IMG/VR virus record: IMGVR_UViG_2734482594_000001
Source: a virus
Lineage: Duplodnaviria; Heunggongvirae; Uroviricota; Caudoviricetes
Reading direction: 5' to 3' (one strand)
Length of the DNA: 7,590 nucleotides
Position numbers and translations under genes: made by a program. Position 1 is the stretch's first letter. Each line of letters starts with the position of its first letter. A model generated the notes under the pieces. It had not been told where the DNA came from and made no database searches. It saw only the letters and a program-made list of their open reading frames with translations. Shown here piece after piece: positions 1 to 7,183 of this stretch.

Positions 1-1569
1 CCGGACGGCATGACATCGCTGCGTGAATATGCCGGTTATCACGGCGGTGGCAGCGGATTTGGTGGGCAGTTGCGGGCGTGGAACCCACCGGGTGAAAGTG
101 TGGATGCAGCCCTGCTGCCCAACTTTACCCGTGGCAATGCCCGCGCAGACGATCTGGTACGCAATAACGGCTATGCCGCCAACGCCATCCAGTTGCATCA
201 GGATCATATCGTCGGGTCTTTTTTCCGGCTCAGTCATCGCCCAAGCTGGCGCTATCTGGGCATCGGGGAGGAAGAAGCCCGTGCCTTTTCCCGCGAGGTT
301 GAAGCGGCATGGAAAGAGTTTGCCGAGGATGACTGCTGCTGCATTGACGTTGAGCGAAAACGCACGTTTACCATGATGATTCGGGAAGGTGTGGCCATGC
401 ACGCCTTTAACGGTGAACTGTTCGTTCAGGCCACCTGGGATACCAGTCCGTCGCGGCTTTTCCGGACACAGTTCCGGATGGTCAGCCCGAAGCGCATCAG
501 CAACCCGAACAATACCGGCGACAGCCGGAACTGCCGTGCCGGTGTGCAGATTAATGACAGCGGTGCGGCGCTGGGATATTACGTCAGCGAGGACGGCTAT
601 CCTGGCTGGATGCCGCAGAAATGGACATGGATACCCCGTGAGTTACCCGGCGGGCGCGCCTCGTTCATTCACGTTTTTGAACCCGTGGAGGACGGGCAGA
701 CCCGCGGTGCAAATGTGTTTTACAGCGTAATGGAGCAGATGAAGATGCTCGACACGCTGCAGAACACGCAGCTGCAGAGCGCCATTGTGAAGGCGATGTA
801 TGCCGCCACCATTGAAAGTGAGCTGGATACGCAGTCAGCGATGGATTTTATTCTGGGCGCGAACAGTAAGGAGCAGCGGGAAAGGCTGACGGGCTGGATT
901 GGTGAAATTGCCGCGTATTACGCCGCAGCACCGGTCCGTCTGGGAGGCGCAAAAGTGCCGCACCTGATGCCGGGGGACTCACTGAACCTGCAGACGGCTC
1001 AGGACACGGATAACGGCTACTCCGTGTTTGAGCAGTCACTGTTGCGGTATATCGCTGCCGGGCTGGGTGTCTCGTATGAGCAACTTTCCCGGAATTACGC
1101 CCAGATGAGCTACTCCACGGCACGGGCCAGTGCGAACGAGTCGTGGGCGTACTTTATGGGGCGGCGAAAATTCGTCGCATCCCGTCAGGCGAGCCAGATG
1201 TTTCTGTGCTGGCTGGAAGAGGCCATCGTTCGCCGCGTGGTGACGTTACCTTCAAAAGCGCGCTTCAGCTTTCAGGAAGCCCGCAGTGCCTGGGGGAACT
1301 GCGACTGGATAGGCTCCGGTCGTATGGCCATCGATGGTCTGAAAGAAGTTCAGGAAGCGGTGATGCTGATAGAAGCCGGACTGAGCACCTACGAGAAAGA
1401 GTGCGCGAAACGCGGTGACGACTATCAGGAAATTTTTGCCCAGCAGGTCCGTGAAACGATGGAGCGCCGCGCAGCTGGTCTTAAACCGCCCGCCTGGGCG
1501 GCTGCGGCATTTGAATCCGGGCTGCGACAATCAACAGAGGAGGAGAAGAGTGACAGCAGAGCTGCGTAA
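1..1569 (+). CDS. B: portal protein (lambda gpB-like), 5' end truncated by window edge
   Basis: Frame 1 is open from position 1 (ccg gac ggc atg...; first in-frame ATG at 10) to TAA at 1567-1569. Translation (LREYAGYHGGGSGFGG...NFTRGNARADDLVRNNGYAANAIQLHQDHIVGSFF...) is recognised from memory as phage lambda portal protein B. Position directly upstream of C/Nu3/D/E is as expected. No start or RBS is visible because the 5' end lies outside the window. Confidence 0.93.
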   Translation, partial: PDGMTSLREYAGYHGGGSGFGGQLRAWNPPGESVDAALLPNFTRGNARADDLVRNNGYAANAIQLHQDHIVGSFFRLSHRPSWRYLGIGEEEARAFSREVEAAWKEFAEDDCCCIDVERKRTFTMMIREGVAMHAFNGELFVQATWDTSPSRLFRTQFRMVSPKRISNPNNTGDSRNCRAGVQINDSGAALGYYVSEDGYPGWMPQKWTWIPRELPGGRASFIHVFEPVEDGQTRGANVFYSVMEQMKMLDTLQNTQLQSAIVKAMYAATIESELDTQSAMDFILGANSKEQRERLTGWIGEIAAYYAAAPVRLGGAKVPHLMPGDSLNLQTAQDTDNGYSVFEQSLLRYIAAGLGVSYEQLSRNYAQMSYSTARASANESWAYFMGRRKFVASRQASQMFLCWLEEAIVRRVVTLPSKARFSFQEARSAWGNCDWIGSGRMAIDGLKEVQEAVMLIEAGLSTYEKECAKRGDDYQEIFAQQVRETMERRAAGLKPPAWAAAAFESGLRQSTEEEKSDSRAA

Positions 1570-2869
1570 TCTCCCGCATATTGCCAGCATGGCTTTTAAT
1601 GAGCCGCTGATGCTTGAACCCGCCTATGCGCGGGTTTTCTTTTGTGCGCTTGCAGGCCAGCTTGGGATCAGCTGCCTGACGGATGCAGTATCCGGCGACA
1701 GCCTGACTGCCGGAGAGGCACCCGCGGCGCTGGCGTTATCCGGTGATGATGACGGACCACGACAGGCCCGCAGTTATCAGGTAATGAACGGCATCGCCGT
1801 GCTGCCGGTGTCCGGCACGCTGGTCAGCCGGACGCGGGCGCTGCAGCCGTACTCGGGGATGACCGGTTACAACGGCATTATCGCCCGTCTGCAACAGGCT
1901 GCCAGCGACCCGATGGTGGACGGCATTCTGCTCGATATGGACACACCGGGCGGAATGGTGGCGGGAGCATTTGACTGCGCTGACATCATCGCCCGTGTGC
2001 GTGACATAAAGCCGGTATGGGCGCTGGCCAATGACATGAACTGCAGCGCAGGTCAGCTGCTTGCCAGTGCCGCCTCCCGGCGTCTGGTCACGCAGACCGC
2101 CCGGACAGGCTCCATCGGCGTCATGATGGCTCACAGTAATTACGGCGCTGCGCTGGAGAAACAGGGCGTGGAAATCACGCTGATTTACAGCGGCAGCCAT
2201 AAGGTGGATGGCAACCCCTACAGCCATCTACCGGATGATGTCCGGGAAACATTGCAGTCCCGGATGGATGCAACCCGCCGGATGTTTGCACAGAAGGTGT
2301 CGGCATATACCGGCCTGTCCGTGCAGGCTGTGCTGGATACCGAGGCTGCAGTGTACAGCGGTCAGGAGGCCATTGATGCCGGACTGGCTGATGAACTTGT
2401 TAACAGTACCGATGCGATCACCGTCATGCGTGATGCACTGGATGCACGTAAATCCCGTCTCTCAGGAGGGCGAATGACCAAAGAGACTCAATCAACAACT
2501 GTTTCAGCCACTGCTTCGCAGGCTGACGTTACTGGCGTGGTGCAAGCGACGGAGGGCGAGAACGCCAGCGCGGCGCAGCCGGACGTGAACGCGCAGATCA
2601 CCGCAGCGGTTGCGGCAGAAAACAGTCGCATTATGGGGATCCTCAACTGTGAGGAGGCTCACGGACGCGAAGAACAGGCACGCGTGCTGGCCGAAACCCC
2701 CGGTATGACCGTGGAAACGGCCCGCCGTATTCTGGCCGCAGCACCACAGAGTGCACAGACGCGCAGTGACACTGCGCTGGATCGTCTGATGCAGGGGGCA
2801 CCGGCACCGCTGGCTGCAGGTAACCCGGCATCTGATGCCGTTAACGATTTGCTGAACACACCAGTGTAA
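1550..2869 (+). CDS. C: prohead protease / minor capsid protein C (lambda gpC-like, ClpP/S49-like serine protease fold by recall), 439 aa
   Basis: GTG at 1550-1552 is preceded by GAGGAGGAG (1537-1545) and the frame runs to TAA 2867-2869 (439 codons). Translation from VTAELRNLPHIASMAFNEPLMLEPAYARVFF... matches recalled lambda gpC. The start overlaps the 3' end of B by 20 nt in a different frame. The six-frame ORF (1415..2869) extends further upstream only because no stop intervenes. Alternative in-frame ATG at 1589 lacks an equivalent SD. Confidence 0.85.
   Translation: MTAELRNLPHIASMAFNEPLMLEPAYARVFFCALAGQLGISCLTDAVSGDSLTAGEAPAALALSGDDDGPRQARSYQVMNGIAVLPVSGTLVSRTRALQPYSGMTGYNGIIARLQQAASDPMVDGILLDMDTPGGMVAGAFDCADIIARVRDIKPVWALANDMNCSAGQLLASAASRRLVTQTARTGSIGVMMAHSNYGAALEKQGVEITLIYSGSHKVDGNPYSHLPDDVRETLQSRMDATRRMFAQKVSAYTGLSVQAVLDTEAAVYSGQEAIDAGLADELVNSTDAITVMRDALDARKSRLSGGRMTKETQSTTVSATASQADVTGVVQATEGENASAAQPDVNAQITAAVAAENSRIMGILNCEEAHGREEQARVLAETPGMTVETARRILAAAPQSAQTRSDTALDRLMQGAPAPLAAGNPASDAVNDLLNTPV
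2474..2869 (+). CDS. Nu3: scaffolding protein Nu3, nested in-frame within the 3' part of C (131 aa)
   Basis: Internal ATG at 2474-2476 in the C reading frame is preceded by a strong SD CAGGAGGG (2463-2470, 3 nt spacer). It shares the C stop at 2867-2869. Translation MTKETQSTTVSATASQADV... is an Ala/Gln/Glu-rich, low-complexity product consistent with recalled lambda gpNu3. An upstream in-frame ATG at 2264 (MDATRR...) is an alternative start but has no good SD. Confidence 0.7.
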   Translation: MTKETQSTTVSATASQADVTGVVQATEGENASAAQPDVNAQITAAVAAENSRIMGILNCEEAHGREEQARVLAETPGMTVETARRILAAAPQSAQTRSDTALDRLMQGAPAPLAAGNPASDAVNDLLNTPV

Positions 2870-2878
2870 GGGATGTTT

Positions 2879-3211
2879 ATGACGAGCAAAGAAACCTTTA
2901 CCCATTACCAGCCGCTGGGCAATAGTGACCCGGCTCATACCGCAACCGCGCCCGGCGGATTGAGTGCGAAAGCGCCTGCAATGACCCCGCTGATGCTGGA
3001 CACCTCCACCCGTAAGCTGGTTGCGTGGGATGGCACCACCGACGGTGCTGCCGTTGGCATTCTTGCGGTTGCTGCTGACCAGACCAGCACCACACTGACG
3101 TTCTACAAGTCCGGCACGTTCCGTTATGAGGATGTGCTCTGGCCGGAGGCTGCCAGCGACGAGACGAAAAAACGGACCGTGTTTGCCGGAACGGCAATCA
3201 GCATCGTTTAA
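2879..3211 (+). CDS. D: head decoration protein D (lambda gpD-like), 110 aa
   Basis: ATG at 2879 has SD-like AAGGG (2868-2872) 6 nt upstream; the ATG at 2873 abuts the SD with no spacer and is less likely. Stop TAA at 3209-3211. Translation [43 protein letters not shown]... matches recalled lambda gpD. Confidence 0.93.
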
Positions 3212-3266: not shown

Positions 3267-4292
3267 ATGTCGATGTACACAACCGCCCAGCTGCTGGCGG
3301 CAAATGAGCAGAAATTTAAGTTTGATCCGCTGTTTCTGCGTCTCTTTTTCCGTGAGAGCTATCCCTTCACTACGGAGAAAGTCTATCTCTCACAAATTCC
3401 GGGACTGGTAAACATGGCGCTGTACGTTTCGCCGATTGTTTCCGGTGAGGTTATCCGTTCCCGTGGCGGCTCCACCTCTGAATTTACGCCGGGATATGTC
3501 AAACCCAAGCATGAGGTGAATCCGCAGATGACCCTGCGTCGCCTGCCGGATGAAGATCCGCAGAATCTGGCGGACCCGGCTTACCGCCGCCGTCGCATCA
3601 TCATGCAGAACATGCGTGACGAAGAGCTGGCCATTGCTCAGGTCGAAGAGATGCAGGCAGTTTCTGCCGTGCTCAAGGGCAAATACACCATGACCGGTGA
3701 AGCCTTCGATCCGGTTGAGGTGGATATGGGCCGCAGTGCGGCGAACAACATCACACAGTCCGGCGTCACGGAGTGGAGCAAGCGTGACAAGTCCACGTAT
3801 GACCCGACCGACGATATCGAAGCCTACGCGCTGAACGCCAGCGGTGTGGTGAATATCATCGTGTTTGACCCGAAAGGCTGGGCGCTGTTCCGTTCCTTCA
3901 AAGCCGTCAAGGAGAAGCTGGATACCCGTCGCGGCTCTCATTCCGAGCTGGAGACAGCGGTAAAAGACCTGGGCAAAGCGGTGTCCTATAAGGGAATGTA
4001 TGGCGATGTGGCCATCGTCGTGTATTCCGGACAGTACGTGGAAAACGGCGTCAAAAAGAACTTCCTGCCGGACAACACGATGGTGCTGGGGAACACTCAG
4101 GCTCGCGGTCTGCGCACCTATGGCTGCATTCAGGATGCGGACGCACAGCGCGAAGGCATTAACGCTTCTGCCCGTTACCCGAAAAACTGGGTGACCACCG
4201 GCGATCCGGCGCGTGAGTTCACCATGATTCAGTCAGCACCGCTGATGCTGCTGGCTGATCCTGATGAGTTCGTGTCCGTTCAACTGGCGTAA
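3267..4292 (+). CDS. E: major capsid protein E (lambda gpE-like, HK97-fold), 341 aa
   Basis: ATG at 3267 to TAA at 4290-4292. Translation MSMYTTAQLLAANEQKFKFDPLFLRLFFRESYPFTTEKVYL... matches recalled lambda gpE. The six-frame ORF starts at GTG 3240, which lies inside the upstream hairpin and has no RBS, so is unlikely. A second ATG at 3273 is a possible alternative start. Confidence 0.93.
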   Translation: MSMYTTAQLLAANEQKFKFDPLFLRLFFRESYPFTTEKVYLSQIPGLVNMALYVSPIVSGEVIRSRGGSTSEFTPGYVKPKHEVNPQMTLRRLPDEDPQNLADPAYRRRRIIMQNMRDEELAIAQVEEMQAVSAVLKGKYTMTGEAFDPVEVDMGRSAANNITQSGVTEWSKRDKSTYDPTDDIEAYALNASGVVNIIVFDPKGWALFRSFKAVKEKLDTRRGSHSELETAVKDLGKAVSYKGMYGDVAIVVYSGQYVENGVKKNFLPDNTMVLGNTQARGLRTYGCIQDADAQREGINASARYPKNWVTTGDPAREFTMIQSAPLMLLADPDEFVSVQLA

Positions 4293-4333: not shown

Positions 4334-4585
4334 ATGACGAAAGATGAACTGATTGCCCGTCTTCAGGAGCTGGGTGAGCAATTGAACCGCGATGTCAGTT
4401 TGACGGGAACGAAAGAAGAACTGGCGCTTCGTGTGGCAGAGCTGGAAGAAGAGCTTGATGACACGGATGAAACTGCCGGTCAGGACACCCCTCTCAGCCG
4501 GGAAAATGTGCTGACCGGGCATGAAAATGAGGTGGTATCAGCGCAGCCGGATACCGTGATTCAGGATACGGCTGAACTGGTCACG
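4334..4585 (+). CDS. FI: FI (lambda gpFI-like, DNA packaging / head assembly factor), N-terminal 84 codons only; 3' end lost in N-gap
   Basis: ATG at 4334 is preceded by GGAGG (4324-4328, 5 nt spacer). Translation MTKDELIARLQELGEQLNRDVSLTGTKEELALRVAELEEELDDTDETAGQDTPLSRENVLTGHENE... matches recalled lambda gpFI. The frame runs into the N-run at 4586. The ORF-track start at 4295 lies in the hairpin and lacks an RBS. Confidence 0.85.
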
Positions 4586-4666
4586 NNNNNNNNNNNNNNN
4601 NNNNNNNNNNNNNNNNNNNNNNNNNNNNNNNNNNNNNNNNNNNNNNNNNNNNNNNNNNNNNNNNNN
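4586..4666. other. run of 81 N (assembly gap or masked sequence) covering the FI 3' end, FI-FII junction and FII 5' end
   Basis: Seen in sequence: uninterrupted N from 4586 to 4666. By recall, the homologous lambda interval is about 240 nt, so the N-run length is probably not the true length. Confidence 0.95.
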
Positions 4667-4936
4667 ATGACATCCGGTGAGCAGTCAGGTGCGGTGATAC
4701 GTGGTGTTTTTGATGACCCTGAAAATATCAGCTATGCCGGACAGGGCGTGCGCGTTGAAGGCTCCAGCCCGTCCCTGTTTGTCCGGACTGATGAGGTGCG
4801 GCAGCTGCGGCGTGGAGACACGCTGACCATCGGTGAGGAAAATTTCTGGGTAGATCGGGTTTCGCCGGATGATGGCGGAAGTTGTCATCTCTGGCTTGGA
4901 CGGGGCGTACCGCCTGCCGTTAACCGTCGCCGCTGA
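4667..4936 (+). CDS. FII: FII (lambda gpFII-like head-tail joining protein), C-terminal ~89 codons; 5' end lost in N-gap
   Basis: Frame open from the gap edge to TGA at 4934-4936. Translation ...TSGEQSGAVIRGVFDDPENISYAGQGVRVEGSSPSLFVRTDEVRQLRRGDTLTIGEENFWVDRVSPDDGGSCHLWLGRGVPPAVNRRR matches the recalled C-terminus of lambda gpFII. The true start is upstream within the Ns; the ATG at 4667 is probably internal. Confidence 0.85.
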   Translation: MTSGEQSGAVIRGVFDDPENISYAGQGVRVEGSSPSLFVRTDEVRQLRRGDTLTIGEENFWVDRVSPDDGGSCHLWLGRGVPPAVNRRR

Positions 4937-4947
4937 AAGGGGGATGT

Positions 4948-5526
4948 ATGGCCATAAAAGGTCTTGAGCAGGCCGTTGAAAACCTCAGCCGTATCAGCAA
5001 AACGGCGGTGCCCGGTGCCGCCGCAATGGCCATTAACCGCGTTGCTTCATCCGCGATATCGCAGTCTGCGTCACAGGTTGCCCGTGAGACAAAGGTACGC
5101 CGGAAACTGGTAAAGGAAAGGGCCAGGCTGAAAAGGGCCACGGTCAAAAATCCGCAGGCCAGAATCAAAGTTAACCGGGGGGATTTGCCCGTAATCAAGC
5201 TGGGTAATGCGCGGGTTGTCCTGTCCCGCCGCAGGCGTCATAAAAAGGGGCAGCGTTCATCCCTGAAAGGTGGCGGCAGCGTGCTTGTGGTGGGTAACCG
5301 TCGTATTCCCGGCGCGTTTATTCAGCAACTGAAAAACGGCCGGTGGCATGTTATGCAGCGTGTGGCCGGGAAAAACCGTTACCCCATTGATGTGGTGAAA
5401 ATCCCGATGGCGGTGCCGCTTACCACGGCGTTTAAACAGAATATTGAACGGATACGGCGTGAACGTCTTCCGAAAGAGCTGGGCTATGCGCTGCAGCATC
5501 AACTGAGGATGGTAATAAAGCGATGA
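4948..5526 (+). CDS. Z: tail completion protein Z (lambda gpZ-like), 192 aa
   Basis: ATG at 4948 is preceded by AGGGGG (4938-4943). Stop TGA at 5524-5526. Translation MAIKGLEQAVENLSRISKTAVPGAAAMAINRVASS... matches recalled lambda gpZ. Confidence 0.92.
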   Translation: MAIKGLEQAVENLSRISKTAVPGAAAMAINRVASSAISQSASQVARETKVRRKLVKERARLKRATVKNPQARIKVNRGDLPVIKLGNARVVLSRRRRHKKGQRSSLKGGGSVLVVGNRRIPGAFIQQLKNGRWHVMQRVAGKNRYPIDVVKIPMAVPLTTAFKQNIERIRRERLPKELGYALQHQLRMVIKR

Positions 5527-5918
5527 AACATACTGAACTCCGTGCAGCCGTACTGGATGCACTGGAGAAGCATGACACCGGGGCGACGCTTTTTGATGGT
5601 CGCCCCGCTGTTTTTGATGAGGAAGATTTTCCGGCAATTGCCGTTTATCTCACCGGCGCTGAATACACGGGCGAAGAGCTGGACAGCGATACCTGGCAGG
5701 CGGAGCTGCATATTGAAGTTTTCCTGCCTGCTCAGGTGCCGGATTCAGAGCTGGATGCGTGGATGGAGTCCCGGATTTATCCGGTGATGAGTGATATCCC
5801 GGCACTGTCAGATTTGATCACCAGTATGGTGGCCAGCGGCTATGACTACCGGCGCGACGATGATGCGGGCCTGTGGAGTTCAGCCGATCTGACTTATGTC
5901 ATTATCTATGAAATGTGA
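5523..5918 (+). CDS. U: tail terminator protein U (lambda gpU-like), 131 aa
   Basis: ATG at 5523-5525 overlaps the Z stop (ATGA, 5523-5526), suggesting translational coupling. Stop TGA at 5916-5918. Translation [54 protein letters not shown]... matches recalled lambda gpU. Confidence 0.92.
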
Positions 5919-5925
5919 GGACGCT

Positions 5926-6745
5926 ATGCCTGTACCAAATCCTGTAATGCCGGTGAAAGGTGCCGGGACCACCCTGTGGGTTTATAAGGGNNNNNNNNNN
6001 NNNNNNNNNNNNNNNNNNNNNNNNNNNNNNNNNNNNNNNNNNNNNNNNNNNNNNNNNNNNNNNNNNNNNNNNNNNNNNNNNNNNNNNNNNNCCGCTTTCA
6101 GACGTTGACTGGTCGCGTCTGGCAAAAGTTAAAGACCTGACGCCCGGCGAACTGACCGCTGAGTCCTATGACGACAGCTATCTCGATGATGAAGATGCAG
6201 ACTGGACTGCGACCGGGCAGGGGCAGAAATCTGCCGGAGATACCAGCTTCACGCTGGCGTGGATGCCCGGAGAGCAGGGGCAGCAGGCGCTGCTGGCGTG
6301 GTTTAATGAAGGTGATACCCGTGCCTATAAAATCCGCTTCCCGAACGGCACGGTCGATGTGTTCCGTGGCTGGGTCAGCAGTATCGGTAAGGCGGTGACG
6401 GCGAAGGAGGTGATTACCCGCACGGTGAAGGTCACCAATGTGGGACGTCCGTCGATGGCAGAAGATCGCAGCACGGTGACGGCGACGACCGGCATGACGG
6501 TGACACCCGCCAGTGCTTCCGTAGTGAAAGGGCAGAGCACCACGCTGACCGTGGCATTCCAGCCGGATGGCGCAACCGACAAGAGCTTCCGTGCGGTGTC
6601 TGCGGATAAAACAAAAGCCACCGTGTCGGTCAGTGGTATGACCATCACCGTGAAAGGTGTTGCTGCAGGCAAGGTCAACATTCCGGTCGTATCTGGTAAT
6701 GGTGAGTTTGCTGCGGTTGCAGAAATCAACGTCACCGCCAGTTAA
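5926..6745 (+). CDS. V: major tail tube protein V (lambda gpV-like) with C-terminal Ig-like (Big_2-type) domain; interrupted by N-gap, apparent frame change across the gap
   Basis: ATG at 5926 is preceded by GAGGA (5917-5921). N-terminal part [22 protein letters not shown] runs in frame 1 up to the gap. After the gap the frame-2 segment [28 protein letters not shown]...[16 protein letters not shown] runs to TAA at 6743-6745. Both parts match recalled lambda gpV. The ORF track splits it into 5896..6108 and 5960..6745 because of the Ns. Confidence 0.88.
5991..6091. other. run of 101 N (assembly gap or masked sequence) inside the 5' region of V
   Basis: Seen in sequence: uninterrupted N from 5991 to 6091. 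The flanking V segments are in different frames (1, then 2). By recall, lambda has only about 22 nt (about 7 codons) between the flanking residues. Confidence 0.95.
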
Positions 6746-6760: not shown

Positions 6761-7183
6761 ATGTTCCTGAAAACCGAATCATTTGAACATAACGGTGTGA
6801 CCGTCACGCTTTCTGAACTGTCAGCCCTGCAGCGTATTGAGCATCTCGACCTGATGAAACGGCAGGCAGAACAGGCGGAGTCAGACAGCAACCGGAAGTT
6901 TACTGTGGAAGACGCCATCAGAACCGGCGCTTTTGTGGTTGCGATGTCCCTGTGGCATAACCATCCGAAGAAGACGCAGATGCCGTCCATGAATGAAGCC
7001 GTTAAACAGATTGAGCAGGAAGTGCTTACCACCTGGCCCACAGAGGCAATTTCTCATGCTGAAAACGTGGTGTACCGGCTGTCCGGTATGTATGAGTTTG
7101 TGGTGAATGATGCTCCTGAACAGGCAGAGGACGCCGGGCCTGCAGAGCCTGTTTCTGCGGGAAAGTGTTCGACGGTGAGCTGA
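6761..7183 (+). CDS. G: tail assembly chaperone G (lambda gpG-like), 140 aa
   Basis: ATG at 6761 is preceded by GGAGAG (6748-6753). Stop TGA at 7181-7183. Translation MFLKTESFEHNGVTVTLSELSALQRIEHLDLMKRQAEQAESD... matches recalled lambda gpG. The acidic C-terminal region contains the slippery heptamer. Confidence 0.92.
   Translation: MFLKTESFEHNGVTVTLSELSALQRIEHLDLMKRQAEQAESDSNRKFTVEDAIRTGAFVVAMSLWHNHPKKTQMPSMNEAVKQIEQEVLTTWPTEAISHAENVVYRLSGMYEFVVNDAPEQAEDAGPAEPVSAGKCSTVS

Follow-up and report, generated by a model that had tools for sequence, protein, structure and literature searches.

Examination of the window, i.e., the whole stretch of DNA analyzed here (7,590 nt), revealed a gene that very probably encodes the Nu3 scaffold protein and that lies nested, in frame, within the last 30% of the head maturation protease gene C, such that two proteins would be read from one frame by use of two start codons (Table 1). 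The sequence points to ATG 2474, found directly behind a strong Shine-Dalgarno (SD) motif, as the position where translation of the shorter protein would be initiated. In this, the outcome agrees with the first-pass annotation of the window, which had described an ATG at 2474 in the C frame following a strong SD and a shorter protein comprising the C-terminal third of C; relative to the 439 residues of C, the nested ORF (2474-2869) indeed accounts for the fraction given above. The nesting of Nu3 within C is already known as the lambda arrangement and is, in biological terms, nothing new.

Table 1. Features of the window considered in the text (positions are those of the whole window).
Feature	Position	Strand	Remarks
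Portal gene B, 3' part	to 1569 (stop)		End overlapped by gene C
SD of gene C, AGGAGG	1538-1543	+	Within AGAGGAGGA; dG -12.0 kcal/mol, the strongest in the C frame
Gene C, head maturation protease (S49/SppA fold) with C-terminal scaffold domain	1550-2869	+	439 aa; GTG start
Protease fold, C residues 81-298	1790-2443	+	Matched by solved SppA chains 3rst_A and 4kwb_A, E about 1e-21
Upstream in-frame ATG, C codon 239	2264-2266	+	Start of nu3 in RefSeq lambda (5132)
Internal SD, AGGAGG	2464-2469	+	Ser-Gly-Gly codons tcA GGA GGg of C
Predicted Nu3 start ATG, C codon 309	2474-2476	+	C frame; 12 residues past the end of the protease fold
Predicted Nu3 scaffold CDS	2474-2869	+	131 aa, 13.4 kDa, pI 4.4; frame and stop in common with C
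Stop TAA common to C and Nu3	2867-2869	+	Overlaps the SD GTAAGGGA of D (start 2879)
D, decoration gene	2879-3211		Start mapped from lambda
E	3267-4292

The window contains a lambda-like head-tail module

The window corresponds to the head-tail morphogenesis module of a lambda-like phage or prophage and is approximately 98% identical to lambda. The genes appear in the lambda order, namely, B (portal), C, D, E, FI, FII, Z, U, V, G, and T, with only the start of T lying within the window. Mapping of the window ORFs onto lambda revealed the synteny of a head module, with a portal protein, a protease/scaffold, a decoration protein and a major capsid protein. When the C region was compared with many records of Lambdavirus and related phages, identities of 97.7-98.6% were obtained; in the comparison with lambda, identity was 99% over the 700 nt surrounding the nested start, with a stretch of 116 nt that includes the SD and the ATG being identical. 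Window positions 2474 and 2264 match lambda positions 5342 and 5132, respectively. As the head module was found in 3464 of 5426 complete Escherichia coli genomes, the window may well derive from a prophage.

Two runs of N interrupt the window, one at 4586-4666 (81 nt, FI/FII) and the other at 5991-6091 (101 nt, V). Their lengths differ from those of the lambda sequence that they replace: the first run shifts the offset to lambda by 161 nt, and the second shifts it the other way by 79 nt. Given this mismatch in length, together with the apparent fusion of FI and FII and the broken V frame, the runs are gaps or masks rather than real sequence. Further downstream, cugcGGGAAAGug is found at 7155-7167, where G ends and beyond which the T frame runs on; the known -1 frameshift heptamer of lambda G/G-T occupies this position. 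The GTG at 7165 that would be called as the start of T lacks an SD (-2.2), in keeping with T being reached by frameshifting.

Gene C encodes an S49 protease followed by a scaffold domain

Gene C of the window corresponds to lambda C (4418-5737), and its start region overlaps the end of the portal gene. Pfam Peptidase_S49 (PF01343) matches C residues 150-297 (E = 8.2e-44), while PHROG 53, the head maturation protease family, matches C with an E value of 1.5e-153. Together with the matches to solved SppA structures, these results place a serine protease domain of the S49 type (SppA/ClpP fold) in the N-terminal portion of C.

Several other features of the region were noted. Early in gene C, the + strand contains a hairpin resembling a terminator (1616-1647), formed by GAACCCGC...GCGGGTTT and with a T-rich tail behind it, the number of terminator-like sites in the region not exceeding that seen in shuffles (2 vs 1.3). 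At the other end of the gene, two in-frame ATGs, 2873 and 2879, follow the shared TAA in the region 2866-2881. In the lambda annotation, the second of these is the start of D; in the mechanically produced list of ORFs, it is the first.

The C-terminal domain of C, which shares both frame and stop codon with the nested ORF, is homologous to lambda Nu3. The nested product matches PHROG 8399 ("head scaffolding protein") from end to end (positions 1-131 of 131, E = 1.4e-78) and is identical to its lambda counterpart at 127 of 131 residues, i.e., with four amino acid differences. As such, the earlier assignment of this product as the Nu3 scaffold of a lambda-type locus was borne out. As a called protein, the exact 131-residue sequence of the window appears on 165 contigs. 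The mass calculated for the 131-residue lambda product (13,394 Da) agrees with that of purified gpNu3, a 13.4-kDa protein. As to composition, the product had been described as rich in Ala, Gln, and Glu. This is true of Ala (20.6%), whereas Glu (7.6%) and Gln (6.9%) are only moderately represented, with Thr (10.7%) being the second most abundant residue. In lambda, Nu3 serves as the scaffold, with C acting as the protease; the two proteins interact, and C may degrade Nu3 (PMC3224144). Given the near-identity of the window to lambda, the short product is predicted to serve likewise as a procapsid scaffold that is removed by the protease.

ATG 2474 is preceded by one of two strong SD motifs in the C frame

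To score SD strength, pairing of the 3' end of the 16S rRNA with the 3-13 nt upstream of each of the 41 ATG, GTG, and TTG codons lying in the C frame was calculated. A strong SD was found at only two of the 41 positions, namely, GTG 1550 (-12.0 kcal/mol), the start of C, and ATG 2474 (-10.8 kcal/mol), with the next best score being -6.4. When the gene starts present in the window were considered in the same manner, that of Nu3 ranked second, behind C and ahead of Z (-10.7), FI (-9.3), and U (-8.5), with G (-6.6), V (-5.9), D (-5.2), and E (-4.1) making up the weaker end of the series. The claim that the internal SD is stronger than most gene-start SDs in the window is, therefore, correct, with only that of C being stronger. 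The 8-mer CAGGAGGG had been offered as the SD; the 6-nt core is complementary to the anti-SD, whereas the 8-mer as a whole is not. The motif reads cAGGAGGg at 2463-2470, with a spacer of 4 nt (GCGA) between the AGGAGG core and the ATG. Such spacing is close to the lower limit for functional spacers and is the same in phage 21 and in relatives sharing 72-75% protein identity with the window. An in-frame internal start codon with its own SD is found at the protease/scaffold junction.

Taken by itself, the motif is only mildly unusual. The pattern AGGAGG-N3-9-ATG occurs twice in the window, as compared with 0.35 expected occurrences, and 13 of 200 shuffles also reach two. The case accordingly depends on position and conservation, with conservation being decisive.

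The junction SD and ATG are conserved in close and distant relatives

Conservation among closer relatives was considered using a sample comprising 80 IMG/VR loci together with lambda, phage 21, and D2. Relatives at 72-75% protein identity retain GGA GGN NNN ATG at the homologous position; in one haplotype, the sequence is GGA GTA, which still provides AGGAG. The codons flanking the motif vary, encoding S, T, L, Y, P, R, or I before it and R, T, S, N, or M after it. The first Gly of the motif (Gly306) is encoded by the rare codon GGA in all 16 linker haplotypes, as compared with 12.8% of the other Gly codons of the same genes. The Met encoded at 2474 is likewise ATG in 16 of 16 haplotypes.

For a more distant comparison, annotated phage records and further IMG/VR loci were added, yielding 114 C homologues that formed 29 clusters at 90% identity. 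These span Lambdavirus, phage 21, Casjensviridae, and phages of Rhodobacter and Ruegeria, with identity to the window being as low as 27%. In the 29 clusters, the distance from the end of the protease domain to the first in-frame ATG thereafter is most often 12 residues. The median SD dG of these junction ATGs is -6.9 kcal/mol, as compared with -2.2 kcal/mol for 476 other in-frame ATGs (Mann-Whitney p = 2e-14, a value that overstates independence since the clusters are phylogenetically related). An SD of -6 kcal/mol or better precedes 79% of the junction ATGs and 5% of the others, and the pattern is present in every major clade sampled. In four of the 29 clusters (PhAER-1, LAh_7, L105, and L116), the junction SD is weak or absent as measured with the E. 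coli anti-SD. In two others (L079 and L083), the "first ATG" is an extra Met, with a GGAGGA-ATG site appearing a few codons later.

Which amino acids are encoded across the GGAG core varies among the clusters (G-G, R-S, Q-E, S-G-A, or L-E), while the ATG always follows 4-8 nt later. This points to selection acting on the nucleotides, and hence on the mRNA, rather than on the protein.

An upstream start at ATG 2264 is improbable

In the RefSeq lambda record (NC_001416), the nu3 CDS is given as 5132-5737, as is also the case in the GenBank lambda record, corresponding to a start at ATG 2264 of the window. Were this correct, Nu3 would be a protein of 201 residues and 20.8 kDa, and 2474 would specify a mere internal Met. 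In addition to the reference records, the 201-residue protein is found in databases (AAA96538.1), and PHROG 8940 is a profile of 201 positions. Nu3 runs near 19-20 kDa on SDS gels, behavior that may have prompted the choice of the 201-residue product. Acidic, Ala/Pro-rich, disordered proteins, however, commonly migrate slowly on such gels, so that the gel size of Nu3 does not discriminate between the two starts.

Several lines of evidence argue against the upstream position. The best SD-like match of ATG 2264 scores -4.3 at a distance of 13 nt, a useless position, and amounts to effectively no SD; the lambda counterpart scores -7.4 at 12 nt, again too distant. A product beginning at 2264 would start within the protease fold, at position 92 of the 154 positions of the Pfam S49 profile, so that a broken third of that domain would remain attached to it. 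Moreover, the codon is ATG in the lambda group only, being an Ile codon (ATT or ATC) in 12 of 16 related haplotypes and encoding I, V, L, or A in more distant homologues. A third proposal, GTG 2168, which is the Nu3 start in the lambda imm434 record, corresponds to GTT or GTC in nine of the 16 haplotypes. ATG 2264 is, therefore, probably not a start, and initiation of Nu3 there is considered improbable. Preference for 2474, already voiced in the first-pass annotation on the grounds that 2264 lacks an SD, is now supported by SD strength, by the domain boundary, by conservation of the junction SD and ATG, and by loss of the Met at 2264.

Two readings of the locus without internal initiation can also be considered. 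In the first of these, a scaffold-sized fragment would be generated solely through autoproteolysis of C, as with the self-processed gpO of phage P2, with AGGAGG being a by-product of a Gly-Gly linker. C is indeed a protease, Gly-Gly is plausible as a flexible linker, and a single gene provides both protease and scaffolding protein in related phages (P2) (PMC8508860). Such an origin would not explain why the SD core is kept even when the amino acids encoded differ, with the ATG always at 4-8 nt, or why the rare GGA codon is used in 16 of 16 haplotypes. Nu3 is, moreover, reportedly still made in the presence of upstream amber mutations in C, a result ascribed to Shaw and Murialdo in 1980. Autoproteolysis as the only source of the scaffold is, as such, even less probable than a start at 2264. 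Finally, that the motif arose by chance or is an internal pause site in C with no role in initiation is scarcely credible: the shuffle count given above and the presence of a second AGGAGG and ATG (2364-2378), out of frame and apparently non-functional, lend this some support, but the motif, its spacing, its frame, and its junction position are conserved down to 27% identity, while the out-of-frame ORF decays in relatives, unlike 2474.

Other RNA features and ORFs near the nested start

The second AGGAGG (2364-2369) is followed, after a 6-nt spacer, by ATG 2376, which opens a +1-frame ORF of 33 codons whose TGA overlaps the ATG of Nu3 (ATGA). This ORF was considered as an upstream ORF coupled to Nu3 and rejected, given that it is interrupted by a stop codon in six of the lambda-group sequences sampled, has lost its ATG in one, and is absent or filled with stop codons in phage 21 and in the 72-75% relatives. 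The AGGAGG in question encodes Q-E-A of a conserved S49 motif, and the ORF is probably a by-product of that motif, GQEAIDAGLADE.

A 6-bp stem, formed by GUCUCU (2457-2462) and AGAGAC (2482-2487), places the SD and AUG of Nu3 in a 19-nt loop and is identical in lambda. Conservation of this hairpin does not extend beyond the lambda group, with neither phage 21 nor the 72-75% relatives preserving it, and it was not retained as a candidate element. Predicted structure in a 100-nt region around the ribosome-binding site did not exceed that of shuffles (z = +1.07), and no match to an Rfam family of structured RNAs was obtained in the window. Minus-strand ORFs across 2488-2938 were likewise set aside, with no homology supporting them.

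A model for the expression of C and Nu3

In the proposed scheme, a single reading frame of the late polycistronic mRNA would give rise to both proteins. Initiation at GTG 1550 would yield the 439-residue C protein, comprising the S49 protease domain, the linker, and the scaffold domain, while ribosomes binding the internal AGGAGG would start at ATG 2474 and generate the 131-residue Nu3, consisting of the scaffold domain alone. With the internal site lying in the linker directly after the protease fold, Nu3 would be a clean, domain-sized product. The internal ATG with its strong SD may, judging from lambda, provide scaffold in excess over the protease, whose own start is a GTG overlapping the end of B. 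By virtue of the common C-terminal domain, the few protease molecules would, again as in lambda, co-assemble with the scaffold in the procapsid and then degrade it ahead of DNA packaging.

An internal promoter, as with herpesvirus UL26.5, was considered as a further source of the short product and rejected, with no sigma-70-like promoter being detected on the + strand between 1500 and 3300. The lack of such a site upstream of Nu3 fits translational rather than transcriptional nesting.

Comparison with related protease-scaffold genes

The window and the C/Nu3 region of lambda (4418-5737) share gene order, the protease domain, the common stop, and the 131-residue product, but differ in that the lambda RefSeq record places the start of nu3 210 nt further upstream than does the favored start of the window. 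Phage 21 contains a homologous S49 protease-scaffold gene (genes 5/6, M81255; 54-58% identity to the window), with gene 6 nested in gene 5. The annotated start of gene 6 and its putative ribosome-binding site (GAGGAGG) are found at the aligned junction, with the ATG occupying the same alignment column as 2474 of the window. The phage 21 scaffold is longer than that of lambda (200 residues, i.e., some 70 extra), a difference attributable to three repeats of approximately 105-115 nt annotated as "Tri boxes" at 1565-1959 of M81255, in gene 6. Xylella phage Sano and other Casjensviridae/Chi-like phages show the same synteny as the window and a junction ATG with a GGAG-type SD. In these phages, identity to the window is 27-32%, the SDs are weaker and are provided through other amino acids, and the region is mostly annotated as a single CDS.

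More distant parallels are known in which protease and scaffold share a C-terminal domain in one frame, namely, herpesvirus UL26/UL26.5 (the assemblin protease and scaffold), Mu I/Z, and P2 gpO. Their proteases may be unrelated to S49, and differences exist in how the shorter protein arises. UL26.5 is expressed from a separate promoter and transcript, not from an internal ribosome-binding site, while P2 produces a single protein that is then processed, unlike the two starts proposed for the window.

Implications for annotation

Expression of Nu3 from within C has been a textbook case of a gene within a gene since 1980, and in UniProt, Nu3 is presumably entered as an isoform of C that arises by alternative initiation and is devoid of residues 1-308. 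That annotations may nonetheless differ as to where Nu3 begins had been anticipated in the first-pass annotation, and this proved to be so. The start is placed at 5132 in RefSeq lambda (5132-5737, 201 residues), at 5035 in lambda imm434, and at the junction in phage 21, while no Nu3 start is given in most records. Xylella phage Sano is annotated with a nested CDS and a ribosome-binding site at the same junction; most of the phage records sampled offer a single CDS and no nested scaffold. Among those E. coli genomes listed, PGAP provides only "S49 family peptidase," with no nested scaffold CDS. The PHROGs are split likewise, with phrog_8940 being the 201-position profile and phrog_8399 the 131-position profile. 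Lambda has been noted to contain gene pairs that share a frame, an arrangement that gene finders are unable to call (PMC9041506).

The practical yield of the present effort, therefore, lies in annotation, given that Nu3 is inconsistently placed in, or omitted from, public records, and that the reference lambda record and the profiles derived from it present a 201-residue Nu3 supported by neither sequence nor comparative evidence. An SD and ATG some 12 residues past the S49 domain could serve as a rule for annotating nested scaffold genes. On balance, the junction SD and ATG appear to be a family-wide, nucleotide-selected trait of S49 protease-scaffold genes, extending from Lambdavirus to Casjensviridae and alphaproteobacterial phages, at 27-32% identity. 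Should this be the case, then nested scaffold genes would be systematically absent from annotation, the start given for nu3 in RefSeq lambda (5132) would be incorrectly placed, and the conserved Gly-Gly in the linker of lambda-like C proteins would be set by the ribosome-binding site and not by protein function.
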